Positions 2 to 28,908 of a stretch of 47,732 nt of DNA are shown in pieces. Numbering within the stretch: the first letter of the stretch is position 1; each line of letters opens with the position of its first letter. The notes beneath the pieces are model-generated. The model searched no databases and was not told the origin of the DNA. It was given only the letters and a program-made list of their open reading frames with translations. A program made the translations under genes and the position numbers. Origin of the DNA: Akkermansia muciniphila (GTDB taxonomy: Bacteria; Verrucomicrobiota; Verrucomicrobiia; Chthoniobacterales; Chthoniobacteraceae); assembly GCA_945906945.1 (NCBI GenBank), contig CAMDSZ010000001.1:1-47732 (forward strand). Direction: 5' to 3'.

Positions 2-3000
2 ATGACCAACCAGTCCACGATTCTCGCAGTGGGCACCACCTATGGCATTTCAGCCGGGATGCGCCTGATTGGCACCGGGCTGCCTGACCCGGTGGAAGTG
101 AGTGCAGTCTCCAGCGACGGCCGCAGCATCACGCTCACAGGCTCGATCAATGTGGGGACATTGTTTGGGGAATCGGTGTCGACGATTGGAGCGCCTTCGC
201 TGTCAGCGTTCGTTGTGCCAAACAGTGGCTCTGTCACCGCACAGACGGGCTCTTTGGAGGCGTTGCCCGATTACAATCCGAGCGGGGATGACAGCGAAAA
301 CTACGCGATCAAGCCGATACGCCAGGTGTTGCGGATCCGAGCCGACCCTGACAATTCGCTCATTTCTGGAAGCATTGTTTCAGTGGGAACCATTGGATTT
401 AGAAATTACCCGATAACTATGGCAAAGACCCTGATGGCGGGGACTTTTACGGTTGAGGTGCGTGAAAGTTCTCCGGCGGTGCGTGCGAGCGGAATTTCGA
501 ACGACCAAAAATGGTGGGGTGTGCGCGGAGTGCGTCCGGGGATGCGGGTGATAAACAAGAATCTGCCGCCGGGTTGCTATGTTTATTCGGTGGATGATGA
601 TTCGCGGGTGGTGAATGGAACCCTGTCCTACGGGCGCTTCACGGTGGCAATTCCAGTGGTGAATCGCGACGTTCCCAACACGGTTGTTTCAGGTTGGTCG
701 GGCGCAACCTCAGGCACGGTGAACATCACTGCCGGAGGTGGGAATGGATGGAGCGAAGGGATGGACCTCTCAGGTCCCGGAGTGCCTGCTGACACAAAAA
801 TTCAGGCGATCTTTTATCCTGGCACGATCAGCACCATCTTGTTGTCGAAGTCAGCGACTGTCGTGGCTGGAGCAACATTGACCGCATCCGGGCAGGGGTT
901 CACCGGCGATGTAACCAAAGTTTTCTCAGAGGCCAGATATTTGTACTACGCGCTTACTGGCATTGCTCCGTCCGCCGGAAAAATTTCACTCGTTGGCTCT
1001 GGTACGGTTCAGCTCAGCACACCCATCCCGCTGGACGGGCCTTTGGCATTTTTGCCGGATTCACCAACCGACTTGTATTCGGTGGGGATCCTCAACGGTG
1101 GCTATTTCACGTACAACGATTTCAATTATTTAAAACTTGCGATTCCAGCAAACAGCAACGGGACGGTTGACGACTACGGATTCAATTTCATTTTGTCCGG
1201 GGCCAATACTGCTTCGTTTAACGGGGGTACAATCGCCACGACTGCCGTCAGTTTTTCGAAGAAAAATGGTGGCAATAATTTCTACCAGGGCGGGGGAAAC
1301 AATGCCTTCGGCACTGTAGGAAATACGGCGGTTCTCACTGCGATTCCGGCGTTGCCTTTGAGGACCTGCAGTTTTGTCAACGGCTCCAAGATTGTCCGAA
1401 CATGGAGCACCAAGAGTCTGCTGCCGGGGATGTTCGTCCACCACAGGAATCTCCCTGACAGAGCATATGTGAAGCGAATTATCGATGATCAAACATTCGA
1501 AATATCGTCATACACTGGTGGGGCGACTGGTGGCATTCAGAATGATGATGTGGTTATCAATAACACCGTGGTTCCGAGTCGAGTTCTCGGGGTGCGTTCC
1601 TGGGGGTTGGTGACCACTCCGGTGGCTGCTTCTGGAACGGTGAATTTGAAGCTCAACGATGTGAGCGGGTTGAGTTATGGAACAAGGCTCTTGGGTGCAA
1701 ATTTATCTTCCGGCACCGCGGGCGTGGCAGTGATCACCGGTGTGGATAAGTTCAACTCTTCGGTCACAATCAGCAGCGGGAATACATTCGTCGCGGGGGT
1801 CTCTTTGGTCGCGGTACCAGAATTCGTAGGACCCAATAACATTAACACGTGGAACTTGTATAACTCGCCCATCACTCGTGCTGACGGACAGCCTGTGATA
1901 CTCAATGGCACGGCCTCCAGCTTGAACCCCGCGACGACCTTTCAGGCTGATTTAGGCTTTCTGGCCGTGCCCGGAAATCCGGGGCGTCTGCCCAGTGGCG
2001 CTCGGCTGTTTCCGGACGGAATGGTGGTTGTAGGAACCACCGGAGTTTTTCAGAATTTTGGGGCTGGCGTTGTGCCGGTTAGACAGCAGGTGGTGCTTAG
2101 TGGAACGCTTACAGACACTGGTGCGTTCCCTGCGTGGAGTGGCGCGGTCAGCTTTGTTCCGGGAGTGGACTTGGCGGCGGCAGCGACGGTTGAAGGCGGT
2201 TCAATGGTCACCGTGGGAACCCTGCCAACCGAACGGATCGCAGTCGGCATGCGAGTCTTTGGCCCTGGAATTCCGGAACTCGCTCGAGTGCGCTCGGTGT
2301 TGTCGGGGGGCACCGGCTTTACGATCGGCACGGGAACGCTCGACTTGACCTATGCGGGTAGCAGCACCTCAACCGGAAGCCTCACAGGCGGCTCAGTATC
2401 GCTTGGCACCCTTACAACCGCAACGACGGGAACGGTGATGTCGGTTGGTACAGCCGTAGTCATCGTGCCGAATGGAACGCTGGTCGCTGGCAGTCCGAAT
2501 GTTATCTGCGGAACCGTCGCCGGGCTTGCTCCTGGAATGATCCTTACCGGGTCATCCACCAGTGGAAGTGTTTCGCGCATCACCTACGCGGGCAGAGGGT
2601 ATTCACAGATCGCCTCTATTTCAAATGGCACGCTGTTTACCCTCACTGAGAACGCGAACCAGTCCTCCGCAGGGCCAATGAATTTGGTGGCTGCGTATCA
2701 GAGTTTTCCGAAAGAGTATGGAATGTTCATCACCGGCGCCGGTGTGATCGGCAACGGCCAGGTGTCCATTGGCAATCTTTCCGCAGTCAGTGGAAATGCG
2801 TCATCCTGGCGGTCAGGCTTGCAGCGAGGGATGGTGATTCATGCGCCCGGCCTCTCTCCGCTGGGTGCACACATTCTCCAAGTCAACCCAACAGACATCA
2901 TCGTGTCGACTTGGACTGCCGGAACCTATTCTTTGGGTTCTTTCGCAACCTTGTCTTCCGTTGGACCCACTGGAACGCTCTTGACTTCCAGCCCGTCCCT

Positions 3001-6000
3001 CACGGGTACGGGCACGATTACCATGGCAACAGCGACGGGCATTGTCCCGGGCATGGCGGTCACCGGAACGGGCCTCCCTACGGGCCGCTCGGTTTCCTCT
3101 GTATCAGGCACGGTCGTGACGCTTTCGGGCACGGTCAGTGGCGTTGTCTCCGGGGCTACCATTACGTTTAGCAGTTTTTACTCCTTAAATCCTTCGGCTT
3201 TGAACGCCCCGATTTATTTCAGTGCAACTCCATCTCTGGCGGGCGGCACAGGATTCACAAACAACATCTCCGTCGGTACTGCATCAGGGGTTAACGGGTA
3301 TTGGCTCTCAGGCGGCACGGCTTTGGCCAGCTCCAATCAGATCACGGTAACGTCGGCTCCCTCTTACTTGAAGCCGGGAATGACATTGTATCATCCATTC
3401 CTGAACTCTGGGAGCTTGGTGGAGTCGCAGCGAGGATGGGCCCGGGTAGCAGACGTTTCCGGGGGAGTGGTGACCATTGTTGGGAGTCTCGGGAGCGCGG
3501 TCAGCTCCGGCACCTTTGGAATAGCCGGTTACCTGCCGATGATGCTTTCCCCAGGCAGCCTTTCCGTGGACGGTACGCAGCTTACTTTCTCGGGTTCGAG
3601 CAATCTCTCCGCAGGCATGCTAGTGCATGGAGGAACAGTGAACGGGGGCGGCGCTTATGGCAGCATTTCAGGTGGAGGGAGTTTCACGGGATTTATCCCT
3701 GTGGTCCCTCCCGGTACATTCGTCAGGAATGTAAGCACCGACGGCAGAACGGTCACTTTGAACGGCACGTTAAACACCATTGCCGCTGGAAGCTTGGACG
3801 CAGGTAGCCTCATTTTTTCAACCCTGCCGGGTCAGATTATTCCCGCGGTTTCAACGCGTCCACACTCGAAGCGGCTCTTTGTGCAATCTGGTTCGATCGC
3901 GCAGTCCGGGTATCCCCTAACCGCAAGGCTGGCATGGTGGAGGGATAGCAACATCACGTTGGTCACCGCCGAGGCCCTTGCGAACAACAACACTGAGATT
4001 ATTCTCAACATTACAAATCAGCCCAATAATATCCCGTTCCCGAGCATCTCGGAGGGGGCGCCGATTGTCATCACCCCGCCGTTTGTGACCATGAACGCCA
4101 GGGGTAAAGCGGGATCCAATGTTGTTTCGCTTGAAGGCGGGACTAATGCATTAGTCAACATCCGGGCGCAGGGGGAAGATCTCAAAGTGGGTATGCCGAT
4201 TTTTGGTTACGGGGTACAAAGAGGGACCTTCATTGAATTCATCAACGAGTACACCAACCCAGTAACCGTAGAGCTGTCTCAAGCGCTTGGGCTGGACATC
4301 CCGGTGACTGTTTATGATGCCGATGGAAGCGGCGCTGTGGACGCCCTCGACGAGCCGCTTTCGTACGAGACGCTCGTGGTGAACACGTCCATTGTGTCCT
4401 CCATTTTAAATAAGTCCACCGCTTCGCAGACAGAAATCCAAGTCTTCGATAACTCGGGGTATTTCCCAGGAATGCCTCTGGTTAACAGCTTGGGAAATTT
4501 GACGGCCTTAGGCTTGAATGTGATCGCGAAAATTCCGACGGGGGCCAGGGTGGTATCGAAGCGAGACAGCACCTTCCTTACGCTGAACACCCCTCTGGTA
4601 GGGACCACCAACTACACCACCGTCCCGTACGCAGCTTACACAAATGCCACCACTGCGGAAGCCGCCAACGGTGCGGTTGTGTACGCCACAGCTCCCTACA
4701 TACGCCTCAGAGGAAGGAGCGCCACCCGAACTGCAGCTCAGGGTGGTGGTAGCTCGGTCACCACCATTCCCGGTTCCTCGATTGTGGATTTTGATTCGAG
4801 TTTTATTCAAATGGACCCGAGCTGGGCAGGGATGGCAGTTTACGGTGCGGGCATCCCCCCGGGGGCGAACGTCGAGTCCGTGATTGCGAGCAATCAGTTC
4901 ACTCTAAGCCAGCCAGCTGCACCCACGAGCCTTGTGCCGCAGCAGGCCGCTGCGCCGATTATCTTGGATCCCACCCGAGTCGTGGTTTCCCAGTTTTATG
5001 GGGACAAGAGTTCGCTGGCCCAGCTGACTTTGAATGCGGGTGATTCGGTCCTTTCTGCGCTCCAGAAAAACATGATCCTCGACAGCCCGACCCCGAGCTT
5101 TGGAGGCGCGCAAATTGGAAACGGGCTTCCCAACCTCACCTACCTGACGGGCGGCGCGAGCTTGAGTTCGCGCACCGTTGGAATCAGCGGAACACTCACT
5201 TCCGTTTTTTCTGGGATCAACGTGCGTGCGTTCTACGCCCCGATCCCAATCGGTGTTTCTGCCCAGACCTCGGAGAACAGCTTTACTGTCTCGGGGAACC
5301 TTACCGCACTGTACGAGGGAATGGCTCTGCTCGGGGGGAGTATCGCTACTACTTCGAGCTCAAATGTGCGGCTCAGGACAATCGATCAGGGCAATTCTGA
5401 AATTACGTTTGCGCCATTTTTACGTGTGGGAACGATGGAGGCGACGCCTTCATCACACCCCGAATTGTCAGGTATGCTGAGCAGCCCAATTATCACGCCC
5501 GGCCGACTGTGGTTTGTGAATCCGACGACGGTATTGTTTAAATCTGTGGGATTCACGGAGGGAGGCACGATTGCGGTGAGCGGAAGCGTGCCGAGTTTCG
5601 ACGATGTGAATTCAGTGATCCGCGAGCCTATCACCACTAATCTCTATGGCGGCACGAAAATTAAAAGTCTGCTGACGCCTGTCACTAATTTTGAGTTGAG
5701 CATGCCGGCGCGAGCAACCTCGGGTGGGGTTAGATTGCTGGTGAATCTGGCTGGGGACCGTGCGAATCCGGCAGCCTCGGTGTCGGCTGGAAGCCGCAAC
5801 AGGTCATTCATCCAGATTCCTCGAGCTAGCACCACGGCTGGAAGTTCGGTAGTGCAGTTTGCAGCGGCGATTAAGGCGTTGTATTTGGATTCTACAGCCA
5901 ACGGGTACTCGATAGTGGGCCAGCCCATTTACGGTACGGGAATACCAGCGGACGCGTTTGTTCAGTCCGTGGCGATGGACGGGCTTTCGCTCACGCTCAG

Positions 6001-8290
6001 CAAGGCGGCTGAGGCCGATTCGAGTGAGCAGATTATTGTGGTGAATCCCAACTATGTCATTCCTCTTGAGGGTGCGTTTGCCGCTGCGAATTCGCTGGAA
6101 GCCCAAGTGGAATCGATTGGGGCGGGCAGCGCACTGACCCCGGGGCTGTCCATTTCGGGATTGAACCTGTCCAGCGATACAACGTTGATCAGCTTCACAA
6201 ATACTGCGGAAGGGACGAAGTTAAATTTGAGCGGCCGAACCCTTGGGTACCCCTCATCGCAACTGCCCGGTTTGGGAAATTTTGTTGCGACGGTCCCTTT
6301 TGTGACATTGAAAGACGCCGTGGTGACCGCGAATTCAAACACGATCACCGTGGGGGATTACCAAGAGCCCCCCGGATCGGTGAATACATACCCACAGACA
6401 TCAGGTTTGCGGGTGGGAATGACGGTGATGGGGAGTGGATTGCCGTATGGAACCCAGATCACCGGGGTGATTAGCGGGACGTTGACGCTTTCGCAGTCAG
6501 CGACCAGGACGGGTACCTACACTTTGATTGTAAATCCAGAAGTGCTCTCGGCTCCAGGTTTGCAGCTGACGGCGGGCGGATCATTGGTGAGTCTCAGCGG
6601 ATCGGGGCTTGGAGCCGATACACCGCCCGCGGAGATCATTGCAGGAAGTCTTTCCTCAGACCTTGCCGAGCCGTTCGGTCCCTACGGGCTCGCCAACCAG
6701 TGGCAGAAGCTCGCCTCCTGGGGCAGGGCTCTTGGCGCCCCAGCAATTCCTCACGGAACGGTTTTTTTATCACCTTATTTCATTAACTTTGGGTCCCTCG
6801 GTGGGATCCAAGCCAGTGATAGAGCTTCAGTGCTAGCCGGTGGGTATTTTGATTTGACCAGCGCCAATGGAAACGGTGGCGATACACTGGGCGCCGCTTC
6901 CTTTACCATGAACCAGCGTGCCACAGCGTCGACGAGTTTAGCAGACTTTTATCTGACTTACGGAAGAAGCAGGCTAATTCTGACGGGTACAATACTAAGC
7001 GGCTCATCTGCCTTGAGTGTTTCAACGGTGGACGGTCTGCAGCTGGGACTTCAAGTGGACGGGGCGGGGATCCCGAGCGGGACCCGGATCGTTGAAATTG
7101 ATAGCATCAACAATCGATTGGTTTTGTCGGCTTTGGCGACGGCGACGACTAACGGAGCGTTCAGCTTTTCGAAAACTGGCGCTCTTGTCTCATCGGATTC
7201 TGGGGTGTTTTTGAACAATACGGTGGTGAGCAGCTTGGACTCGAGTGCTATTCAGCCGGGACAAACTGTATCTCTGGCAAGCGGCTCGCTGTTGATTATT
7301 CGAAACATAGTAGACCCCGTCAGTGGCGGGAGCGTGGCTGTGCCGAGTTACAACAACACCCCGTTTATGACGAGTCTGTTGGGGAATGCTGGTCCACGGG
7401 TGCGCTCCGTATCGTCAAACGGATCACTTGTGTTTGAAACAAATACAACTCCGGGCTTGGTGCTCACGGCAGGCACCTCCATCAGCAGCAGCACCGTCTC
7501 GACAACGTTCACCGTAGCAAGCAACCTGATGTTCAATATCAATGGGAACGTTTTTGGACCGTACACCATGGTGGCGGGCTCCACTATTGCAACGCGGGCT
7601 GCGGCTAGTTACCTGGCGCTGAGTCAGCCAGCGCAAAAAAGCTCCAAGTCGGTTCGAGTTTTGTTGGATGGAAAGCCTTACGGGCCTGTGGAAGTCATCA
7701 AAGGTTCACAGGCTCTCCTTTGGCGAGGTGCCGATTTTGTAAGGGCAGGCATGCCGGTGAAAGGCCCCGGCATTCTGCAGGGCACCACCATCCTGCAAGT
7801 GAGCCCGCCTCTGAGTAATGGGTCGCTCACGCTTACATTGAGCGCGCCAGCAACAAGTGAGTTGGCGGCGAATAGCAAATTTGATCTGGAGGTTGGCGGT
7901 GGGGTTAACAGCGGAATCGTGGAACTCAATGACTGGCAGTACAAGACCAATACCGAAAACCTGTCTGTGGAGCCCGGCTGGTTGCTATACCGCAGTAACG
8001 ACCCTTGGGCGGCAAACTGGTACCCTGGTTTTGGGAGAGGTGCTGGCGGCAGCAAGTTTGAGTTGGTCGATTATCTGCTTTTAGGGAAGATCACTTGGGT
8101 CGCTGGCAATGGGGTCTTTGGATTTGAGCCGATTCCCGATCCCCGGAACCGGGTGGCGTTCGACTCGCAGAGCCAGTACCTCATGGATCGGCTAAGTTTT
8201 GAAGCGACGACAGACGTGGCGCTCTCTTCCGGACGCCAAGGCTTTATTGACCAGTCGCTATCGGATTTTTACATGCTGGGACAGACCCCC
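2..8290 (+). repeat. N-terminal ~2,760-aa region: roughly 20-24 degenerate copies of a ~45-55-aa 'GM-box' mini-domain separated by variable G/S/T/V-rich spacers (75-215 aa period)
   Basis: Recurrent motif, approximately GS..[IV].[VL]-x(4-10)-[LI]..GM.[VIL].G.G[IL]P.GT.[IV]..[VI]-x(4-8)-[LIV]TLS..A. Clear copies: IVPGMAVTGTGLPTGRSVSSVSGTVVTLSGTV (3041..3136); SWAGMAVYGAGIPPGANVESVIASNQFTLSQPA (4820..4918); LRVGMTVMGSGLPYGTQITGVISGTLTLSQSA (6407..6502); VRAGMPVKGPGILQGTTILQV...LTLTLSAPA (7739..7852). The very first residues are also a copy: GISAGMRLIGTGLPDPVEVSAVSSDGRSITLTG (~41..139). Copy count is by eye. Confidence 0.6.
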
Positions 8291-11200
8291 GACTTCTTTG
8301 TAGAAGCTGGCAATGCCAGGAGTATTAGGTGGTACAAAGACGGGGAACTGCTTAATCAAGCCGCGGGGAGTTCCAGAGTACAGGTGAGGGTGTCTAACTA
8401 CACCGAGGGCTTTAGCCCTTCTGTAGCCAGAACTGCAACTTCTGACTTCTGGCAACGCTCGCAACTCTCGTTGAGTGCTTTGACCCTCAGCAGTCCCGGC
8501 TTTTATTATGCAAACGGGGTTTCTTCCAACGCTGGGTCCTACTCATTGTCGGATTTGATCCAGGTGAGCATTCCAGATCCGCAGCCTCTGATCGTAAAGC
8601 AGCCCGTATCAAAAGTGGTGCAGCGCGCAGGCACCCAAGTGACCCTGGAGGTTGATCTCAAATGCAACAGCAAGGCGCTGCTAGACACACCGAGGGGGCT
8701 AGCGGTTGCGCCAGACGGAGATTTCTACGTGGTGGAGTCGGGAAATAATTCGCTGCGGAAGGCAACGCTAGGGGGCTTTGTCAACACCATGATCGGATCC
8801 AAGAAAGCGATTCTTGACCCGAACGCCGACGGTGTATCGCGTGATTCGATTTGGGGAATGGCGTCTGGCATCGCTGTGAGGGTGGGCAGCCTTATGATTT
8901 CAGATAAGCTTCTGATTCTCCCATCAGGAACAGCCGGACTCACCGCTGGGATGAAAGTGCTCAGCTCCTCAATCAATGATCGGATTCTGCTGAGCAACTC
9001 GGCAGGCATCACCATTAGCGGTTTTGCGGGTGCAAACACGGTGATTCTTTCAGGCGCACCCGCAGGTGATTCTCCCAGCCACTCCATCATTTTCATCCGC
9101 CCCGAGGCTGAACTCCCAGCGAGTACGAACGAGGTAGTCTACCGGAGGGCAATCTCCAGCTACTCTTCCTTCGGTGTCACCTTGCCAAGCGGAGTTCAAA
9201 ACATTGTGCCCGGAATGCTGGTCTGCGGTTACGGAGTGCCTGACTTCACGACGGTGACAGCCGTCGAAGCCAAGAGCAACTCCGTCACCTTGTCGGGGTG
9301 GATAAGGCATGAAGGACTTGAGGCGAACAACCTATTGGTTTTTGTGCGACCACTGAATCAGCCCGAAGCGATCGCAAGTGACGAAGTCGGGGCCCTCTAC
9401 ATCGCAGACACGGGGAACAATCGGATCTTGAGGTTTTACCCCAAAACGGTTCAGGACAAATCAAGAGGATTTGATCCTGCTGTCCCTGCGGGAACAGTCG
9501 AGGTTTTGACTCCGGCGTCGGGGCCGCAGCTCTCTGCGCCTCGTGGGATCACGGTTGTTGGCTACGGGCCGGAGGCAGTCGTTTACGTGGCCAACTCTTC
9601 TCAAAACACTGTGCTGAAAATCGCGCGAAGTGGGGCATCGTGGGTGAGCACAACGCTCGCCGGTAAACCGGGAGTTTCGGGTTACGCAGATGGGGTGGCA
9701 ACGAGCGCGACATTCAATGGGCTACGTGATGTCGCGTACTACAACGAGTCGGTTTACGTCGCGGACTATCTCAATCACACAATTCGGCGGATTTCATTGG
9801 GTCAAACTCCCGAGGTCACGACGGTGGCGGGTGCGCCGGGACAGGCGGGTCTGATCGATGGCAGTGGAAGCGCCGCGAAACTATATTTCCCGGCAGGTTT
9901 GGCGGTGAATAAGGTGGACGGGAGTCTAACCGTCTCGGACTTGGGCAATCATGCGATTCGAAAACTCAACGCCAATGGTTCGTTGGTGACGATAGCAGGG
10001 AAGATCTTCAACGGAATTCCGGCCTTTGGGAAAGAAGACGGACTCGGCACCTCTGCGGGTTTCTGGTACCCCAAAGGCATCGCGATCGACAAGACGGGAG
10101 TGATCCGCATCGCAGACACCTCGAACCATCTGATCCGATCCATTACACCAGATGCAGCGGTTAGCACGGTGGCGGGCGTGGCCAAGTTCCCTTTCTTTAG
10201 AGATAGCGATAAGGATTGGGCAAAGCCTGTTGCCTATGTCCCAACAGAATTCATGGTGCAATGGTATAAGGACGGGGCCAAAATTACAGACGGCATTACG
10301 CCAAACGGCTCCGTGTTCGCTGGAACCAAGACCCGAATCCTCACGATCGACCAAGTCACTGAGCAGGACTCTGGAGCTTACGCGGCTCTTTTTGAGTCTG
10401 TGACTCGCGTCCCCGTTGAGACGAACGTCACCCAAGTGGTGGTTGGTGGAAATTTGGCGCCGGATTACGTCGGAGAATTCACGGTCACACCCGGAACCTT
10501 GGGTGCGATGAAAATGAATTTCCGTGATATTTTGCCTCCAACTCCGAGCGAGGCTTTCGTGCTCAATCAAATTCGGTGGGACGAGACATTCGAATCCGAA
10601 AAACCGTTCTGGTTGGATTTGGTTTCCAGCACGTTGCCGTCAGAACTGGACGGCAAAAAGGTGACGTTGAGCGCCGCCGGCGTCAACCACTCCATGGTCC
10701 TCACGGAGGATGGAAAATTATACGCGTGGGGCGCCAACAGTTACGGTCAGCTGGGGGTGGGGGATCGCAGTGCGCGGTTTACTCCGGTCCCTGTGTATAT
10801 GGGCGGGGTGTTGAGCGGAAAGACGATTACAAAGATCGCACTGGGCGAACATCACAGCTTTGTGCTGGATAAGGACGGGGCGCTCTACAGTTGGGGACGG
10901 AATGATTTTGGTCAGCTTGGGATTGGGTCAGTTTCGGATGCAAAAGTTTACCCAGAAAAGGCACTCTTGACCGGGTGGACAGCGATTGCCAGCGGGTATC
11001 AGCACGCCCTGGCGGTGAACTTCCGTGGGGAGCTGTACACATGGGGCTTGGACCATCACTCCCAGCTTGGACGACTCAACCGTCCGGCCACTCGCACGGT
11101 GACGTTTTCCAACGTTTCCCTCGCGGCCTTAAGCCAGACAGTCGGGCTAGGCAACAGCACTGGCTTGATTGCGGGCAGCACGCTTACCTTTGCGGCAGGT

Positions 11201-14200
11201 TTACTGGACGGTGGTACCGTCCAAGCTGTGGTTAGTTCTGTGATTGGAGAGGGGCAACTCCGCATCGGAACGGCTTCAGCCTCTGCCATCTCTGGGACAA
11301 CGTTTACCGCGTCTGTTTACTGCGACCCGGTTCCCACACAGATCACTGTGTCGAATGTTACGCCATTCGTGCAAAACTCGGTTGAACAGACGGGAAATGT
11401 GATTGCAGGCGGGCGTGCCCACTCACTGGTGGCCACCACCGGTGGCGTGCTGGCATGGGGGGAGAATAATCTTTTTCAAGCTGGCGCACTGAGCTTCGCT
11501 GATGTGGCGACTCCCCAGTTGATTTCGGCTACCAACGGCTTGCAGATTTCGCAGGTCAGCGCCGGACGCGAGCATTCAATGGCGCTTAGTGATGGAGGAA
11601 CGTTGTTGGCGTGGGGTCGGAACGATAGCCGCCAGCTAGGTGCTGATCTGCATCCGCGAGTGGTGAGCGGTTCCGCTTCGGTTGCGGCTGGAGGCACCCT
11701 TACTGGGAGCGGTACCAGTTCGGTAATTCAGCTGGCAAGCGTCGATGGAATCACCCGAGGGATGTCATTTACGGGTGCTAATTTGACTGGGACAACGCCC
11801 AAGGTGAGAGAAGTGTTGTCGGGCCAGGGAGTCATGCTGTCAGGAGGGAGCGTAACATTGGCCGAGGGAGGCACGATGCTGAGTTTCCAGCGAATCACCG
11901 CAGGAACAGTTCATGGAACGGAGTACAGGATGACTGCGTATCCGATTTCCACTGAGGCATCTAATGTGGTCCGTGTAAGCAGCACTGCGGCGCTTGGCGC
12001 CTCGTCCAGAAGCAACAGGGTGGATCCCGCGTGGGCTGGAACGGTTTCGAGGACATTGACGATGGTGAGCACAGGTTCATGGGCTCCGGGAATGGCGGTG
12101 TACGGTACAGGCGTCCCTTCGGGAACGCGGATTGTTTCCGTGGACGACAGTAGCAACCAGGTAACACTGTCTGGTTCGGTAACGGTGAGTCCGAGCACGG
12201 TGTTGGACGCTCGCGGTTCGAGTCTTGGGAACGAACTTCTGGCGGGGCCGATGAAAGTGACGGGTTTCAGCGCGACCGGGCAGTCTTTCTCCAGCACCCT
12301 GAGGTTGGAACGGATTGTTGAGGGCCCGGCTGTTGTGCTGTCGGGGAACGCAAGTTTTGTCAGTGGAGGCTCGGCCGCATTAAGCGCCCGGTACGGGAAT
12401 CTCGCGCTCTCGGGGACGGTTGCGTTCACCGGCAGCTTGGTGGCGGGGACCACTCAGGTCGTCGTGGCTGGAACCTCCGGGCTGGAAATCGGGATGGAGC
12501 TAAGCGCCAGTGGAAGCCTTGCAGCCGGGACCACCATTCAGGAGATTGTGACTGGCAAACTAAAGCTGTCCTCTGCTCCGCTCATCTCTGGGGCATCCGT
12601 CCCGATGATCGCAACCCGTGTTGCTTCCAGCAGCCCGGTGGCGGTGAATTTGTCCGAGCTGCGACTGCCCGAGGCTGTATCCTCCGTGACGCGGCGTGTC
12701 ACCGATATTAGCAGCGGTGCACAGTTTAACTTTATCAAGACCTCGGACGGCCTGTTCTGGGCCTGGGGGTTGAACTCGGATGGGCAGTTGGGGGATGGCA
12801 CGTTCAACGACAAATCCATACCCACTGCATTCTTGTCACCGGCCGAAGAGACGTTTGCATGGATTGCTCCGGGTGGAAATCATGCATTGGCCACGACCAC
12901 CGGGGGGGGATTGTTCTCCTGGGGAGGCAATCAGTCGGGTCAGCGGGGTGATGGGACGACGAATACGGTGGCCGACCCTCAAAGACATAAGGGCATCACC
13001 GAATACTTTTTGCAGGCTCAGAGTATTCCCGATTCAGAAGGCCAGCAGCAGGTGCGCGCACGGGTAATTTTAAATGACTCCCAGAAAGTAGAAACGCTGG
13101 TAGTCGTGAAGCCGTCGGCCGCGAACTATGTGAGTCCAAATGCGCCGGTGATTACAAAACAGCCCGCATCGGTGATGGTAGCTGCGGGTGCGACTGCGAC
13201 TTTGACGGTGGAGGCGCGCTCTGAGCTGCCCCTGCAGTACCAGTGGATGTTGAACGGGGTGGATGTAGCCTTGGGCGGGAACAGCCCAAACTACGCGTTG
13301 ACCGATTCGCCGCGGACTCCGATCGCAGGGTTGTATTCAGTGAAGGTGAGTGACGAGCGGGGAAGCATCGTGTCCAAAACCGTGCAGGTTGCGGTGGTGA
13401 ACAGCCCGAGCGTGTTTGCGGAACCGGAGGCCCAAGTGATCCTTCCAAAAACGTCTACATCGATTCAGGTGCTGATGCAGTCTCAGTTCAAAACCTTGTT
13501 TAATTCTCCTCACGGACTTGTGGTTCGAGGAAACGGTGACCTCCTGGTTGCCGACCGCGATAACAGTGTCGTGCGCGTGATGAATGACGGGGGGTTTGTT
13601 GAGACATTGGTAGGGATTCCACAGCAAAGCGGCTGGGTTGATTCGGTGGGCAACCTTTCTCGGTTGTCCAGGCCCGAAGGGTTGACTGTATTGAACATCG
13701 GTGAATTTGAACTGGTGTTCATTACGGATCCGGGGTCGCACACAGTGCGTTGCCTCACTTGGGAGTTTGATAAATCTGTTGGCGATTTCGTGTACCGTTT
13801 GAGAACAGTCGCAGGTTTGCCAATGCAAGCTGGGTTTGTGGATGGCGATATGAAGGAAGCGAAGTTTAATTCGCCAATGGGAGTCGCTGGGTTTGTTTCC
13901 CAGAGGAAAGATACTTCGACGCAATTGCCGCTGCCCGATCAGTATGAGGTCTACCTGTATGTTGCGGACCTGAATAACCATGCATTGAGACTTGTGCTGC
14001 TGCCCGTGACTGTGAGTGAGGACGCGTTGGCCGCAGACCCAAGGAGCAAGCGGACCCTGCAAATCGCACCGAGCATGGTGGCAAGTGTCGCAGGTGCTAC
14101 TCCAATCACTCCAGGGCCGGGCAGCAACGACTCCGCTGCATCGGGACAGCCCGCGCAGTTCTTACTACCCTCAGATGTGGCTGTCCAAGCTGGGTCCAGC

Positions 14201-17200
14201 CATGCGGTGTACGTGGTGGATTCTGGAAATCACAGCATTCGGCGGGTTGAGGCGGATGCGCCCACCTCGCAGCGACTGGCCCAGGGAGTGATTGTTGGAA
14301 CCTACAAGGGGACTGGATCCACCTACATCACGTGGGGTTCTTCTCGCCGGCCCGACTGGGTCAGGCCTGGGATGAAAGTTTCCGCATCCGGATTTTTTAA
14401 GGATGAAACGTATGTGAGTCGGGTGGACGATGGCGGTGTCTTTGTGAGCCAACCCGCGCTTATTCAGGGGGTGACATCCGTGCAATTCACGGATACTCTC
14501 GTAAACTCAATTTTCACCACTTACACGTATGCCGGAACTCCGGGAATCTCAGGGGCGCAGGACGGAGCGGGGGTGCAGGCGCGGTTTTGGTTCCCGCAGA
14601 AAGTCGCGATATCTGGGGATGGTTCATTGTTTGTGTCAGATACAAACAATTGCCTAATTCGTAAGATTGCGCCCTCTTTAGATCCGAGGTCTGGGATTGT
14701 GCGGGTTTTTGCCGGGGTTGTGGGCAAGAGCGGATCTGTTGACGGGCCGGCCTCGATGGCCCAGTTCAGTGCGCCAAAGGGTGTTGCGGTTTCCGACGAC
14801 GGGTCGGTTTATATTTCCGATGACGGGTCGCATCTTATTCGGAAAATCTACGATTATTACGGGGATCGGATGGTGGCAACGCTCGGAGGGCTAGCCAAGT
14901 CTCCCGGCCACATGGATAGCGACCTTGTTTCTGAGTACATCTATCAGTGGAAGAAAAACGGAGCTCCCCTCGGTGCTGCGATTCGAGGCGAAGCAGGCCG
15001 TACGCTCACTTTGAGCGGCGACGCTGCTGATTCGGGAGTTTATGTCGTGGAGGTCACATCTGCGGCACTCTCGAGCTTTAAGTTCACCTCTCAACCGGCA
15101 CAGATCACGGTTCCGGCTTCGAGCGCACCGGTGGCATTCGTAAAGTCGATCACGGTTAGGGCGGGGAATACCTATCAACTGGGCGTCAACGACGTATTCA
15201 AGACGTACTTCCCAAAGCTTGACTGCAAACAATTCATATTTGAGCAGGTTGATTCGAGGCGGCAGACATTGCCGGAGTGGATACAGATTCCAGCTCAACT
15301 AGCCGGCCCAGATCAGGCAGTTGTATCCATCACTCCGAAGGCGGACGCAACCACCCAGTCCCTCGTGATCAGTGTTCTTGCTGATTTGGACGATGGAACA
15401 ACCAAGCTGGGTTATCTCCAATTCAATGTTCAAGGCGTTCGAGTGGATCAAGACTATAGGCCAATCATTGTCCAGCAGCCCACGTCATGGAACTCTACTG
15501 ATAGCGCCCTAATGAGTGACAGACTGGCGGTGAAGGTGATGTCTGGGGATGAATTCTCCACCAGTTATCAGTGGTACCAGAGACAGAAGCCGAGCGCCTC
15601 TTATCTCAGTTACTCAGGCGGTTCGCAGGTCAGTGTGAATTCGCTGTTGAGATCTAGGCAGGCTGCGACAACTGGGAGTCTTGCCCTCTCAATTCCGGTG
15701 TCTGGGGGAACGGGAAGTTCGTTATCATTGCCTCCACCCCTGACGGCGGGAATTTACGCGCTTAAGGTTACAAATAAAAAAGTGCTCTCAAGTTCGACGA
15801 ATACCGTCTTCACGCAGCAAGTCGTGTATAACACGTCAGGGAATTCAGCGGCAGCGACCGGTTCTTTTTCGACGGTCACGAATCAATCACTTGCTTCTGA
15901 CGGTTCTTCGGTCGAAACGGATCTCGTTCAGGTGGTGGTTTCCGGCCCGCCTCAGGTGGTGCAGCAGCCGTTCTCTTACCTTCAGTCGGAGGGCGACCGT
16001 GTGATTCTCAGGGTTTATCCGAAGACTTCCGCGAAATCCTTGATGAACGAACCGCGTGGAATTGCTTACAACAGCAGTGACCAATCCTTGTTATCGGTGG
16101 AGCGCGGCAATTACGCGGTTCGTTCCGTTTCTCTGGGCGGGGAAGTCGCCGACTTCGCCGGTTCGCGTTCGGATTGGGGCGGCGACGACTCCCGACTCTC
16201 GAGGGAAGCCCGATTTGGCAGAACTGACGGAGGCCCCGAGGGGTTGACCGTTGATACTTCGGGGACGGTGTATGTTGCTGATACCATGAATCATGTGGTT
16301 CGCATGATTTATGGGGGCACCGTTAGCACAATTGCGGGTGTCACAGGGTTCGCGGGTTCAACCAACGGTTCTGGCCAATCTGCACGATTCAACATGCCTT
16401 CCGGAATCGCCAGCAGGAACACAGTTGATACGAGCGGTTCGGAAGTTGTGATTCTTTATGTCGCGGACTCAGGCAACCATCTGGTTCGGAAGATTATGGT
16501 TTTGAACAAGGGCAAGACAAATCAGACTATTTCGGTTACGACGCTAGCTGGCGGAGCAGGAATTTCAGGCTATGTGAATGGCGACGGTTCCAGCGCAAGA
16601 TTCTCCGAACCGTTTGATGTGGCTTATTCAAACAACAAAGTGTTCGTGGCAGATTTTCAAAACCACGCAGTACGCTGTATTACCGATCACAACGACGGGA
16701 ATCCCGCAAATGTGACGGTTATCACGCTCGCAGGGGGTGCTCTGGTGGGAGGAACCGAGGTTTTTGGATTGGACATTCCGAATAACCCTGATTCCCCGCT
16801 TTCGGGATTGGACGCAGGATTGAAGGCGAAGTTTTTACATCCCACGGGCGTAGCCTCGGACGGTCAATTTGTCTACGTGGCAGACTGGGGTAATCATGTT
16901 GTCAAACGGGTATCTTTCCCGAGTCCGGGAGCCCAGCAGCAGTCGCTCAGAGTCGAAGTGATCGCAGGTGAGTCAGGTGTTCCAGGTGAATCAGGCGACG
17001 GTCCAGTCAAAGCAAAGGATGCTCGCTTCAAGGAGCCGACAAAAGTCGCCGTGGATCCTTTAGGGAATGTTTATGTTTCTGACTCTTGGAATCACGTGAT
17101 CAGAAAGATTGGCTTAGACCAAGTGATGACCACGGTTGCGGGTGTCGAGGGGCTTCCTGGTGATTTGAACAGCGACTTGCCAGTGGAATTTTATTATCAG

Positions 17201-20200
17201 TGGTATAAGGGCAATCGGCCAATCACGGGCGGAAGCGGAAATGCATCCTCCTATGAAATTAAGTCTCTCAGCTCCGCTTCGGAAGGAGACTACACAGTGT
17301 TGATTTCGAACGATGCCAGAATGAGTGCGTCCTTGATGAGTGCTTCTGCCTCGGTAAAAATGGCTACGCCCACGAGCATGAAGCTGGTGGACGTCATTGC
17401 GGGTCAAACCAGTATCATTGGGAAGAGTGTGATTCGATCAGGTTCTTTGGCCGTGGATCAGCTGCCGACATGGGCCCGGGTGGATAGTCTGGGGAATTTG
17501 GTTCTGTCGCCAAGCGTAATGGAGCCTGTCGGTCTTGTCTCTGGCACCTACGGCGGGGATCCACTGTTTGTAAATGTGGTGTCAAAGAAGCAGGGTATGC
17601 TCTCGCCAAGAATTCTCACCGAACCGATTGATATTCTGACCGGCGTCGGCCAGGACCTGAATTTGCGAGCAAAAGTCCAGCTACCGGGGGCTGCGGCAAC
17701 TGCTGTGGCAACACTTTCAGCTCAAAATGTCAAATGGTACAGGCTTGGTGCGGCTGGGGCGCTCGTGTCTTGCGGCACGCTAGGGGACGCCACTGGGGCT
17801 CGCTCTTCGTTACTGCCCGATGTTCTCCCTGAAACGTACGAGGTGAATTTAAGTTGCCCGCGCGTGCAGGCCGGTCAGGCCGGATTTTATCGCCTTGAAG
17901 TTACGCCGATCCAAGGCGGCGCTCCATTGATCTCGAATTGGATTCAAATCGTGCTTCAGGCTTCTCCATCTTTCGTTGAGCAGCCTGAACCCGAAAAGTT
18001 TTTTGTCGTGGGAGGGTCACTTTCAATATCGGCCGAAGTGCGGACGCCGGCGAAATCGCTGTTCCAGCGTCCGGTGGGTCTGGCGTCTTTGCCAAACACG
18101 TCGCGACTGATCATCGCGGACGAAGAAGATCGAACTGTCCGGATATCCTCCTCGGGAGGCCGAGTCTCTAACTGGTTAGGTGCATCGGGGATCAGCGGTT
18201 TTGCGTCAGGTTCGGGTGAAAATACACGCTTGGGCTCTGTTGAGGCAATAGCTTATGACCCCGGCATCGTGCTGAACTTGAGAAGTGCAAGGCTTACGGC
18301 AGGGTCCGCCTGGATTAAGGTAAAGGAGATCGAAGGCATACACCTAGGAATGACAGTCTCCGGGACTCTGGCGATCCCTGCCGGCGCGCAAATTGAGGAA
18401 ATCGGAGCGGCGGAAGGCTTTTTCCGAAACATCAAGTTGAGCACGACCGCGACTCAGACCCACGCCGAAGTCGATCTGGTTGCCACTAGGGCGAGCGCGA
18501 CTTATTTGGCGGACTCCGTCAACCACGTCATTTGTAAGGTGTCTATGGCCGGCGAAATGAGGGTACTCTGCGGTAGTTTGGGGGTTGCGGGCGACGGAGG
18601 GCTTTACTGTTCTTTGGATAACGCAAAGTTTAATGCACCTCAAGGAGTGGCGGTCGATCCATTGGATGGAACGGTTTATGTTTCCGATACGGGTAACCAC
18701 GCCATCCGGATGATTCAACAAGGGGTGCCAAGGGTGTATTTGGTCGCCGGGGGAACCTTTGGGGATACGCTGGCGTTGCCCTCTTACAGCTTCAAAGATG
18801 TGTCTCGCGAGGAGCTTGGAAACGGGTTTTCCACGTTCAGTCCGTTGGACGTGAAGTTTTATCAGCCCCTAGGGATTGCGGCACGCACTCGTCTTTTGAC
18901 TTCTTTGGATTTCCCGTTGGGTCGATATGTAACTGAGGTTTTTGTGGCTGACCGGATGAACCATGTGGTTCGGGTAATTCGATTAAACGCGCGGAAGCCC
19001 GACAACAGCTTTGCCGTGTTAAATTGGAGCGGTCTGTCTACCGATAAATCCGCTTATTTCAAAGAAGGCCTGTATGACAAAGTTCTCGGTGTGCTTACCT
19101 GGGCGGGTCAGCCCGGAATTAGCGGCGCGAAGGATGGAGCCGGTGATAGCGCTAAGTTTAATTTGCCTTACGGGTTGGCTCTCGACTTCGGCAACGAAGT
19201 GGATGGAAGTCTCTATGTTGCGGATCAAGGCAACCACGCGCTGCGGCGCATCGCTACAGAATTTGATGCACAAACCCTGGTTTTTAAGGATCAGGGGACT
19301 GTAGAAACCGTTGCGGGCATCTTAGGCGTGCCTGGCGCTGCAGATGGTTCTGTGGTCACTGATCCCGTTACGCAGGTTCAAACTGCGATTCCTTCGCGGT
19401 TGTCGTGGCCCACTGGTGTCGCTGTGAACTCGAGAACTGGAGAGGTTTTTGTGTCTGACACAGGGAATTTCTCCATCAGGGTTTTGAGGGACGGTGTTTT
19501 GCAAGCTTTTGTTGGTGAGCTGGGAGCAAAGGGATCCTTTAATAGCGCCGAAGTTTTGGATGGGTTCACTTACCAATGGTACAAAGATGGAAGCCCGATC
19601 GCAGTAAAGGGCTCCGGATTGCAAGGTGTCAATTCGGACACGCTCAGCAATTCGCCGATGGCTTTCAGTGATATAGGCGCATACCAACTGGAAGTCCGCG
19701 GGGCGACTACTCTGCGGAGCGCGGTCAGTTTGCTGCGCGCCGAGACTCCCATGCGATTCATTGAGAGTCCCTTGTCGTACGTTCAAAACAATACGTTGAC
19801 CAACAAGGGCGGTGTTTGGAACAATGATCGAGGGTTCGAGGTGGATCCTTACGGGACCGTCCGTCTTACAGCTACAGTATACGGGGCGGGAAACCTTGGC
19901 TATCAATGGAGCAAAAATGGCATGCCGTTGTCAGACGGAGCAAACCTTTCTGGTGCCGTACTCGGCGGGGTATTGTCTCCGAGTGTCACTTTGGGAAGAG
20001 GCGGATGGAAGAAAATTGACAGTGCAGTGGCTGGCCCGCGGCACTCTGCAGCAATCAGTGCGGGGACGCTTTACATGTGGGGAGCGAACGACGCTGGGCA
20101 ACTGGGGCTTGGGGATCGAGTGCCTAGATCGCTGCCGCAGGCTCTGCCTGCAAGTGCATTTGGTGGAAATCAGGTGAAGGAAGTCGCTCTTGGGCAGAGT

Positions 20201-28800: not shown

Positions 28801-28870
28801 TGCCGCGCAGCGGCTGGCCCGGGTCGCGCACGTGCTTTTCGCCAGCGTGGACTTCAGATACATTCGCTAG
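25814..28870 (+). CDS. PSCyt1-DUF1549(PSCyt2)-DUF1553(PSD1) family protein, 1,018 aa, with an extra beta-sandwich insert and a low-complexity linker
   Basis: Hydrophobic N-terminus (LYGLAVAPLFHAAFAVA). CxxCH 'CLECH' lies at 25967..25981 within FEKKVRPLLEEHCLECHSAAKKIKGGLRLDS (Planctomycete cytochrome-c-like). A second motif, CARCHDHKFDPI, lies at 26912..26947. C-terminal DUF1553-type text: NPLTARVLVNRTWAWVFG, HPELLDYL, ...ASVDFRYIR. Confidence 0.9.
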   Translation: MHFRTSKPRILRNLYGLAVAPLFHAAFAVAHPSAGEVNYFEKKVRPLLEEHCLECHSAAKKIKGGLRLDSQSGWKIGGDSGPALVPHDPEASLLIKAVRYRDPDFQMPPRKKLAARELEILEQWVRTGAHDPRREDLALQNPTRTQSRALALEDAASHWAYRAVVPQAEPVVRNGAWAEGPIDRFLLRAMESASITPVRDADAAVVLRRLHLLLTGLPPEPEAIDAFELEYKRDRRQAVLKTADALIASTAFAEAFARRWLDLTRFAESSGGGRTLLFKDAWRYRDYVLNSIHADVPLNRFITEHIAGDLLPASSVQERARLLTATGFLALGPTNYEEQDKQQLRFDIIDEQLDTIGKAFLGQTIGCARCHDHKFDPIPQRDYYALAGIFSSTRTLNNLTDNVARWVVEPLPGYPEEERLEHEHKQKVAQLRAKIEAARNQVARLNSSPLQGESIVKGPIAIDRFHGIILDDADAKLVGAWKTSSFFKNYVGVGYLTDENTGKGEKTATFTPLFAHSGRYEVRFAYSAGPNRSKEVRVTVFHADGEEVVTVNETEEPAVDGHFTSLGTFRFEKDGAGFVLVSNAGGAGHVVVDAVQFIQDTLPAARTVTQAAAGTAGTASAPSAAGSDANSTGPQTTSASVSSNNGADQLPASKKVDSAKDARATLASLSEELKQLEKKAPPRSVAMVVSENVEVGDTALRVRGIAKQKAEIVPRGFLRAVMVDDAKQIQFDATQSGRTQFAQWLTSDNNPLTARVLVNRTWAWVFGAGLVGTTENFGTTGEKPTHPELLDYLTARFIQQGWSLKQLVREMVTSHAWRLAEEAPLGADPTNKLLSRHSVRRMDADQIRDTMLHAAGRLSREFGGANINGAKDINANESSAANIEYNYIFTDVRRSLYTPAFRNRRHEVFDVFDFGDINNSVGVREASTVAPQALFFLNSAFAGEQAKAVGERLAVSHPDPIAAVDRVSLVMLGRHPSQTEAKVLSALYNSCPSEEDAAQRLARVAHVLFASVDFRYIR

Positions 28871-28908
28871 TCTTTCCCCCGTCTCCCTCCACTTTACCCC
28901 CAACGGAT

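Follow-up and report, generated by a model that had tools for sequence, protein, structure and literature searches.

The GM-box, a motif repeated along a giant protein encoded in the window (the whole stretch of 47,732 nucleotides that was analyzed), marks a domain of an unnamed family, which carries neither a Pfam nor an NCBIfam name and is new but of an ordinary kind. We consider the repeat to be demonstrated with high confidence, and jointly with it the family, the fold and the relatives. The motif is not an orphan: precedents were found in the phage protein gp7 and in PHROG families of virion proteins. All GM-box units were carried by one giant ORF (nt 2-25609, + strand, 8535 aa), the frame of which was open throughout from nt 2. 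The ORF begins 1 nt from the window edge, and the true N-terminus may lie upstream.

The repeat and its copies

The recurrent motif was [GS]..[VI]T[VL]..T.GL..G[MQ].V.G.GIP.GT.I..[IV]....[IV]TLS..AT, and translation and HMM searches confirmed its presence in the ORF where the initial annotation had placed it. A self-trained HMM, iterated on the giant protein until convergence (cut-off iE<0.01), gave 27 matches of 17-52 bits, corresponding to 26 copies, one of which was broken by an insertion. When the residues of the whole protein were shuffled 100 times, no score exceeded 5.4 bits. An external-only HMM, built from the units of other proteins alone, served as a non-circular control; it also returned 27 matches at iE<0.01 in the same places; of these, 19 scored higher than any shuffle (maximum 5.7 bits) and 16 reached iE<1e-5. 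Methionine followed glycine in 19 of its 40 occurrences in aa 1-2763, compared to 5.0 expected (binomial p 5.5e-8). A homologue with 32-36% identity (P0002) kept the boxes at corresponding positions. The robust copies, all on the + strand and scored with the self-trained HMM unless indicated, were as follows:

nt 2-160, + (aa 1-53): GM-box unit, 44.7 bits
nt 506-631, + (aa 169-210): GM-box unit, 33.6 bits
nt 701-871, + (aa 234-290): GM-box unit, 44.2 bits
nt 1370-1531, + (aa 457-510): GM-box unit, 48.4 bits
nt 1625-1798, + (aa 542-599): GM-box unit in which G-T replaces G-M, 35.3 bits
nt 2183-2359, + (aa 728-786): GM-box unit, 43.7 bits
nt 2477-2671, + (aa 826-890): GM-box unit with insertions, 26.6 bits
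nt 2765-2929, + (aa 922-976): GM-box unit, 22.2 bits
nt 2996-3154, + (aa 999-1051): GM-box unit, modelled as aa 988-1062, 33.9 bits; AF2 pLDDT 82; Foldseek 8ECI TM 0.75
nt 3317-3505, + (aa 1106-1168): GM-box unit with insertion, 31.3 bits
nt 3557-3787, + (aa 1186-1229 and 1233-1262): single GM-box unit interrupted by an insertion, 22.3 and 17.7 bits, HMM positions 5-45 and 28-53
nt 4112-4303, + (aa 1371-1434): GM-box unit, 37.8 bits
nt 4760-4930, + (aa 1587-1643): GM-box unit, 46.7 bits
nt 5828-6022, + (aa 1943-2007): GM-box unit, G-Q variant with inserted helix, 39.5 bits; in three-unit model
nt 6104-6247, + (aa 2035-2082): GM-box unit, G-L variant, 17.4 bits; folds as a unit in three-unit model
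nt 6329-6514, + (aa 2110-2171): GM-box unit, 45.6 bits; external-only HMM 41.9 bits
nt 6989-7153, + (aa 2330-2384): GM-box unit, G-L variant, 47.2 bits; external-only HMM 50.9 bits
nt 7691-7858, + (aa 2564-2619): GM-box unit, 44.8 bits
nt 8900-9076, + (aa 2967-3025): GM-box unit between NHL matches (NHL best-stretch coordinates from Pfam), 21.8 bits
nt 9155-9316, + (aa 3052-3105): GM-box unit, 52.0 bits
nt 11693-11869, + (aa 3898-3956): GM-box unit downstream of the first RCC1 match, 27.8 bits
nt 12029-12193, + (aa 4010-4064): GM-box unit, 51.0 bits; external-only HMM 39.6 bits
nt 12434-12592, + (aa 4145-4197): GM-box unit, 37.5 bits
nt 14297-14470, + (aa 4766-4823): GM-box unit, 42.7 bits
nt 18290-18466, + (aa 6097-6155): GM-box unit, 43.1 bits; external-only HMM 32.4 bits
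nt 23525-23692, + (aa 7842-7897): GM-box unit between Ig and PDZ-like matches, 46.2 bits; external-only HMM 46.1 bits

The robust copy number is 26, with the matches at aa 1186-1229 and 1233-1262 taken as a single copy with an insertion, and replaces the 30-35 copies of the initial annotation. Eighteen copies fell within aa 1-2763, where inserts of variable length separate them. They account for 1040 of 2763 aa (38%), and the other 62% is unexplained by robust units; the robust copies thus do not build the first ~2,760 aa on their own, contrary to the initial annotation. The eight further copies lie downstream, alone or grouped by two or three, in the vicinity of NHL and RCC1 propeller, Ig, LamG and PDZ-like domains, and they include the copy that had been proposed at nt 23496-23700, now confirmed at nt 23525-23692. 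Further degenerate copies could be seen by eye in three "spacers" (aa 1470-1530, 1757-1803 and 2240-2320). Aligned with the unit profile by hhalign, the three spacers gave weak or non-significant results, and aa 1757-1803 was the only one with (weak) profile support (E 5e-4, probability 32%).

Protein identity between copies was 16-38%, and no DNA-level repeats matching the copies were found. The copies are therefore old duplications, as had been argued from the divergence of their DNA. The folded unit spans about 65-70 aa rather than the ~50 aa first suggested, based on a modal tandem period of 60-80 aa in other proteins and on the seven strands that the structural model distributes over ~65 residues.

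Fold, family and relatives

The AF2 model of a single unit (aa 988-1062) was all-beta, with seven short strands, a pLDDT of 82 and a pTM of 0.72. In a three-unit segment (aa 1930-2190, pLDDT 80), the three units each folded separately; the pTM of 0.59 leaves the geometry between units uncertain, and no solved multi-unit structure matched this model. The Foldseek neighbors of the unit model were small closed beta-barrels, and there were no Ig structures among its top matches. Likewise, neither an Ig-type sandwich fold nor a Big/Ig HMM match was found inside the GM unit using Pfam and Foldseek. The suggestion of a small beta-barrel or beta-hairpin module is supported by this confident all-beta prediction and its barrel neighbors.

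Searches of Pfam, NCBIfam and PHROGs with aa 1-2763 returned nothing, with 0 Pfam or NCBIfam families at E≤0.1. When 107 units were scanned singly against Pfam, only one-off noise was obtained and no family was matched by more than one unit. The GM unit showed no sequence match to Big/Ig-like, PATR, DUF11 or similar Pfam families. The earlier statement that the motif belongs to no named family holds for Pfam-A (2025 copy) and NCBIfam 20.0. Among 1.84 billion representative proteins scanned in full with HMMER, 3345 clusters (50% identity) reached E≤1e-3, 631 reached E≤1e-10, and many carried 5-27 matched stretches. The consensus of 654 foreign units retained, in order, G (97%), M (60%) or Q (20%), G (92%), G (75%), I (77%), P (64%) and S (83%). 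The carriers included giant proteins of Planctomycetota, proteins with flagellin N/C domains, and PEP-CTERM, ESPR and PATR proteins, and GM units co-occurred with Big_13, PATR and DUF11 in other proteins.

The family profile (A2) matched chain 8eci_1 with an E of 6.3e-6 and 29.1 bits, aligning profile positions 5-65 (61 of 72) with chain residues 12-74; the profile built from the window copies only (A1) was marginal (E 0.15). The same chain was the top PDB match of the aa 988-1062 model in Foldseek (TMq 0.75, rmsd 2.2 Å, 73 columns, 25% identity). PDB 8ECI contains gp7, the capsid decoration protein of Arthrobacter phage Bridgette, whose authors neither defined nor named the domain (Podgorski et al., bioRxiv 10.1101/2022.09.09.507160). 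The gp7 segment G-x-x-I-x-x-A-G-I-P-A-G-T-T-I-T-A-V ... T-I-S-A-A-A-T aligns with the unit profile, and gp7 shares an exposed location, on the particle surface. However, gp7 has G-R where the GM unit has G-M; at 126 aa it contains just one unit and attaches in dimers around the capsid pentons, and it is neither a tandem array nor a cellular protein. Predicted phage fiber and tail-collar structures in BFVD also resembled the unit (Foldseek TM 0.75-0.84, identity ≤41%), among them the "Fiber" of Synechococcus phage Syn30 (M4SIH3), the tail collar of Bordetella phage PHB04 (A0A291LAU2) and a protein of Arthrobacter phage Jinkies (A0A7S6BFK4). PHROGs 5838, 6005, 6002, 10467 and 17105 were each matched locally by 26-47 of the 107 units. 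A window unit matched PHROG virion structural families at E 0.0018 and 0.004, covering only ~50 of 1106-1512 profile positions; what is shared with families 5838, 6005 and 6002, annotated as "virion structural protein", is a domain and not membership of the whole protein. Like the giant protein, these long virion proteins contain GM-type units, but they are viral, and PHROGs are whole-protein clusters without functional detail rather than domain definitions.

In bacteria, Flagellin_N was present in three flagellin-like carriers and Flagellin_C in one, and one carrier was annotated as FlgL. Eight or nine GM-type units follow Flagellin_N, or in P0022 lie between Flagellin_N and Flagellin_C; an example is WP_052440365.1 of Geobacter sp. 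OR-1, annotated as flagellar hook-associated protein 3. The unit is again a surface-exposed tandem bead, although in these carriers the units are inserted into the subunit of a self-assembling filament, whereas the GM-box protein is a multi-domain protein of 8.5 kaa. Giant surface proteins made of Big/Ig-like, PATR or DUF11 domains resemble the present one in that many diverged small beta domains form a long extracellular protein, and differ in that the GM unit does not match them in sequence and its nearest structures are small closed barrels, not Ig sandwiches. That giant surface proteins contain small beta domains in tandem is well established, and the new family changes no concept.

With more than 3,300 clusters at 50% identity, the unit is common, and a single protein often has 5-27 copies. 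Neither Pfam nor NCBIfam detects it, and therefore thousands of residues stay unannotated in phage fibers, in long flagellins and in the giant proteins of planctomycetes. A family definition anchored on 8ECI would reduce this unannotated part, provide domain boundaries for expression constructs and point to a connection between the surface of phage virions and the surface structures of bacteria.

Proposed role and alternative readings

Our overall reading, which we consider likely, is that strands 3-6 of an autonomous, barrel-like all-beta domain of ~65-70 residues form the conserved core seen as the GM-box, and that this domain acts as a spacer. The secondary structure of the model and the conservation pattern suggest that the conserved residues are a folding signature and not an active site. 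The near-invariant Gly would sit before strand 4, the Met that follows it (Gln in 20% of the family) and the alternating V/I/L would face the core, G-x-G-I-P would form a tight turn joining strands 4 and 5, G-T would start strand 5 and T-L-S would end strand 6, with surface positions presumably free to vary. At least 26 such beads would be strung along the chain, most likely as rigid, protease-resistant spacer or stalk modules that set the length and spacing of a very large fiber, secreted or on the cell surface, whose propeller and lectin-like domains would do the binding. Homologous units apparently do the same job at other exposed sites, namely in phage fibers, tail-collar and capsid decoration proteins, the flagellin variable region and surface proteins with PEP-CTERM or type-V signals. 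Counted against the spacer reading is that the only solved homologue, gp7, binds the capsid as a dimer.

The unit could instead be a binding module for glycans or surface adhesion, its many weak beads making up a multivalent adhesin. Its relatives occur in attachment proteins (predicted phage fiber, short tail fiber and tail collar, and the capsid-bound gp7), and the NHL, RCC1, LamG and Ig partner domains are typical of binding proteins. Nevertheless, we consider a binding role unlikely. The conserved Gly, Pro and alternating hydrophobics are what turns and a core typically show, not a ligand site, the surface varies strongly from copy to copy (16-38% identity), and the unit lacks an aromatic or acidic signature of the kind usual in modules that bind carbohydrate or Ca. 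A broader version seems distinctly unlikely to us, namely that the GM unit is a mobile module, exchanged between receptor-binding phage fibers or decoration proteins and host flagellins or giant surface proteins, with weak multivalent binding to glycans or cell surfaces of its own, or else an unrecognized GD-box/cradle-loop branch. If the mobile binding module were real, the giant protein would be a fiber-like multivalent adhesin made of phage-type parts.

Cradle-loop/RIFT barrels with a GD-box include the N-terminal barrel of F1/V-ATPase subunits and EF-Tu domain 2, and the GM unit might be a remote, six-stranded member with G-[MQ] in place of G-D. We take the local pattern hydrophobic-x-G-[MQ]-x-V-x-G to resemble a GD-box hairpin. 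After 8ECI and the phage domains, Foldseek listed a Uba1/UBA6 domain and ATPase chains (TMq 0.5-0.7, ~70-85 columns), presumably the Uba1 beta-barrel domain and the ATPase N-terminal barrel, but at a non-significant E of 0.1-0.9. Moreover, the A2 profile searched against the PDB to E=10 recovered 8ECI and one marginal DUF74-type chain only, none of the units reached E≤0.1 with the ATPase or EF-Tu barrel families of Pfam, and seven strands were modelled rather than six. The GD-box/psi-loop kinship raised by the initial annotation is thus retained as a fold-level resemblance (TM 0.6-0.7 to the Uba1 and ATPase barrels, E non-significant) and finds no sequence support; we judge such an origin very improbable. 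It is harder still to see the motif as an artefact of G/S/T/V-rich composition or as an already named repeat family, readings to which we give almost no credence. The region is indeed rich in these residues (G 12%, S 12%, T 10%, V 9% in aa 1-2763), but shuffles of the same composition topped out at 5.4-6.1 bits against the 17-52 bits observed, profiles from foreign proteins also detected the units, the domain has a solved homologue in 8ECI, and no family emerged from Pfam, NCBIfam or the per-unit Pfam scans. Significance beyond compositional bias is therefore confirmed, and both readings were rejected for Pfam-A (2025 copy) and NCBIfam 20.0.

Pfam matches to NHL, RCC1, Ig, Laminin_G_3 and PDZ-like domains occurred solely past aa 2763, with the Ig_3, I-set and Ig_2 matches outside the GM units. 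No signal peptide or hydrophobic anchor was found in the giant protein within the window, whose edge possibly cuts off the N-terminus. Judging by the domain company of the giant protein, an extracellular or surface location appears moderately probable, as does the spacer role of the unit. The window is cellular and showed no phage genes. The genes adjoining the giant ORF are typical of Planctomycetes, and the closest genome was a Planctomycetaceae MAG from Lake Erken.

A recurrent and diverged unit in the giant protein

The giant open reading frame (ORF) has its ATG at nt 2, a single nucleotide from the window edge, and stays open to nt 25609 (8535 aa). Translation may really begin farther upstream, outside the window, in which case the protein would exceed 8535 aa. 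As read in the window, the protein begins directly with a GM unit, the recurrent G-M ... G-x-G-[IL]-P ... TLS motif, and shows neither a signal peptide nor a hydrophobic anchor. Pfam placed NHL and RCC1 propellers, Ig, Laminin_G_3 and a weak PDZ-like match on the protein, all past aa 2763, and aa 1–2763 gave zero matches in Pfam, NCBIfam and PHROGs. The C-terminal ~400 aa after the PDZ-like match (aa about 8140–8535; nt about 24400–25609) showed no Pfam match, no hydrophobic anchor and no recognisable sorting signal.

Within aa 1–2763, 19 of 40 methionines directly follow a glycine, compared to 5 expected (p 5.5e-8). Starting from 12 obvious copies, an HMM iterated over the giant protein converged on 27 matches of 17–52 bits, whereas 100 residue shuffles of the protein reached a maximum of 5.4 bits. 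Because this test is partly circular, a second HMM was built as a control exclusively from foreign units. It returned 27 matches at iE<0.01 in the same places, 19 of them above its best shuffle (5.7 bits) and 16 with iE<1e-5. A compositional artefact was rejected (shuffles ≤5.4–5.7 bits vs. 17–52 bits observed), and the recurrent motif described in the initial annotation was confirmed by both HMMs.

Counting aa 1186–1229 and 1233–1262 as a single unit with an insertion, 26 copies are robust. Eighteen lie in aa 1–2763, where they cover 1040 aa (38%), so on their own the robust copies do not build the first ~2,760 aa, as the initial annotation had it. The remaining eight begin at aa 2967, 3052, 3898, 4010, 4145, 4766, 6097 and 7842, the last being the copy already placed at nt 23496–23700. 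No DNA-level repeats were found at the GM copies, and their pairwise protein identity is 16–38%. A homologue from another metagenome (P0002; 32–36% identical to the giant protein) keeps boxes at corresponding positions. Taken together, these comparisons argue that the copies are old and under selection, in agreement with the ancient divergence first proposed.

The initial annotation had counted 30–35 copies, and those beyond the 26 are plausible by eye but were not demonstrated by hhalign or by partial-unit HMMs. Degenerate units can be seen in spacers between robust copies at aa 1470–1530 (G-M at 1490), aa 1757–1803 (G-M at 1773) and aa 2240–2320 ('GAPAIPHGTVF ... FTMNQRATAS'; 'GGDGIPINTVF ... 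FSLSQRAT' in P0002). When three ortholog-aligned spacers (aa 1644–1942, 2172–2329 and 2385–2563) were compared by hhalign with the unit profile, one gave a weak match (aa 1757–1803, E 5e-4, probability 32%) and the other two were not significant. These matches are too weak to show that degenerate units make up the entire N-terminal region. N-terminal, core and C-terminal sub-HMMs, cut from the profile so that insertion-interrupted copies could be counted, had too little power; the core sub-HMM, the sole useful one, gave 21 matches. The spacers at aa 1644–1942 (window 4928–5827) and 2385–2563 (window 7154–7690) are weakly alike (BLASTP E 4e-5 over ~130 aa), a hint of either another repeated element or strongly degenerated GM units.

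Family members and predicted fold

The 22-copy alignment, run by HMMER against the full set of 1.84 billion representative proteins, matched 3345 of them at E<=1e-3; 631 reached E<=1e-10 and 67 reached E<=1e-30, and many carry 5–27 matched stretches. A word-indexed protein search with the same alignment gave no matches. Among the best 150 HMMER matches, successive units are mostly spaced 60–80 aa apart; the natural unit is therefore ~65–70 aa, somewhat longer than the motif and than the ~50 aa originally estimated. The consensus of 654 foreign units is ..GS..[VIL]T[VL].ST.GL.vG[M60%/Q20%].[VI].G.G[I]P.GT.[IV]..[IV]....[IVF]T[LI]S..AT, in which the first Gly (of G-M) is conserved at 97%, the next Gly at 92% and the Ser of TLS at 83%.

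Carriers include further Planctomycetota giants. In three further carriers a Flagellin_N domain is followed by 8–9 units; one of these three also has Flagellin_C, and a different one, a Geobacter sp. OR-1 protein, bears the annotation hook-associated protein 3. Still other carriers are marked by a PEP-CTERM signal, by a type V extended signal peptide, or by PATR, Big_13 or DUF11 domains. Several foreign units (P0003–P0152) contain a conserved Cys pair flanking the first strands, e.g., 'NCVTQVGSSLVTCNST'; if a disulfide, this would suggest an extracellular location.

As the initial annotation had held, the unit is unassigned: with no match in Pfam-A (2025 copy) or NCBIfam 20.0, membership in a named family of either was rejected, and the domain is unnamed in both. 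Scanned singly against Pfam, 107 units were assigned to no family, and no family was matched by more than one unit. In PHROGs, 26–47 of the 107 match locally within 'virion structural protein' families 5838, 6005 and 6002, as well as unannotated families 10467 and 17105.

By sequence, the unit profile matched one solved structure, 8ECI chain 1 (E 6.3e-6, 61/72 positions; marginal with window copies alone, E 0.15). 8ECI shows the capsid of Arthrobacter phage Bridgette, in which this chain is gp7, a decoration protein bound as dimers around the pentons (bioRxiv 10.1101/2022.09.09.507160). The uncharacterized protein 3QKB also matched weakly (E 0.14–0.17), which was judged chance. A tblastn search of 50,697 phage records with the 8ECI segment gave no match, a result that is silent on absence from phages and probably reflects the low-complexity filter on a T/A/S-rich 63-mer.

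An AlphaFold2 model of aa 988–1062 from a 107-row unit alignment (pLDDT 82, pTM 0.72) has seven short strands. G-M opens strand 4, and the G-x-G-L-P loop leads into strand 5, which begins with G-[TR]; strand 6, paired with strand 5 as a hairpin, ends in T-L-S, and the last strand ('ITF') closes the unit. Independently of sequence, Foldseek placed 8ECI first (TM 0.75, 2.2 Å rmsd), which together with the model supports the small beta-barrel suggested earlier. Predicted viral structures gave 12 matches at E<=1e-3 (TM 0.75–0.84), including Synechococcus phage Syn30 'Fiber', tail-collar proteins and Arthrobacter phage proteins. The next PDB neighbours (phage tail-tube/tailspike, Uba1/UBA6 and F1/V-ATPase subunit chains; TM 0.5–0.7) were non-significant (E 0.1–0.9).

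In a model of aa 1930–2190 (pLDDT 80, pTM 0.59), three units folded separately, each ending in a long strand with '[IV]VNP' on two of them; Foldseek found no multi-unit counterpart in the PDB. The '[IV]VNP[EN]' strand follows units aa 1943–2007 and 2110–2171 (aa about 2010–2018 and 2174–2181; window about 6020–6050 and 6520–6545) and is kept in P0002 ('LVVNPNNII', 'LVVNPEILT'). It may mark a unit sub-type or a fixed inter-unit joint.

Proposed role of the unit

The conserved positions are glycines, one proline and alternating aliphatics, and surface positions vary freely. We infer from this pattern that the motif is a folding signature shaping turns and core rather than a catalytic or ligand site. 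All identifiable carriers are secreted, filament-forming or virion-exposed, which leads us to read the unit as a putative compact, independently folding bead. Such beads would lend length and rigidity to extracellular fibres, spacing functional domains apart; in the giant protein, for which we infer a surface location, these would be the NHL and RCC1 propellers and the Ig, LamG and PDZ-like modules.

The main alternative is a bead with a binding activity of its own, hinted at by the units in phage fibres and a decoration protein; we consider this unlikely. Remote kinship with GD-box/RIFT barrels, raised in the initial annotation, is more doubtful still, as the fold resemblance is non-significant and has no sequence support. 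The domain belongs to a familiar category, tandem small beta domains in giant surface proteins, and is no conceptual surprise. Our literature searches, which covered giant genes of planctomycetes, long proteins and giant flagellins, yielded no account of it. It has a solved homologue and sits hidden within PHROG families; it merits a family definition, and its spread over phage, flagellin and giant protein is a modestly interesting lead.

Surroundings of the giant gene

Downstream of the giant ORF are PSCyt1/PSCyt2/PSD1 proteins, a DUF1501 protein and housekeeping genes. PSCyt1/PSCyt2/PSD1 with DUF1501 is a hallmark gene set of Planctomycetes.

PSCyt1-PSCyt2-PSD1 genes in the window
25814–30357: first gene; overlaps the DUF1501 gene and also has a Golvesin_C domain
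44524–47211: second gene

The sole related genome locus, 87% identical, was a Lake Erken contig belonging to an uncultured Planctomycetaceae MAG. Unlike the GM units, which have no detectable DNA similarity among themselves, a 43-nt segment forms the sole DNA-level direct-repeat family of the giant gene. Its six copies (window 14626–18979; 60–74% identity to the reference copy) fall in the part where Pfam finds NHL repeats.
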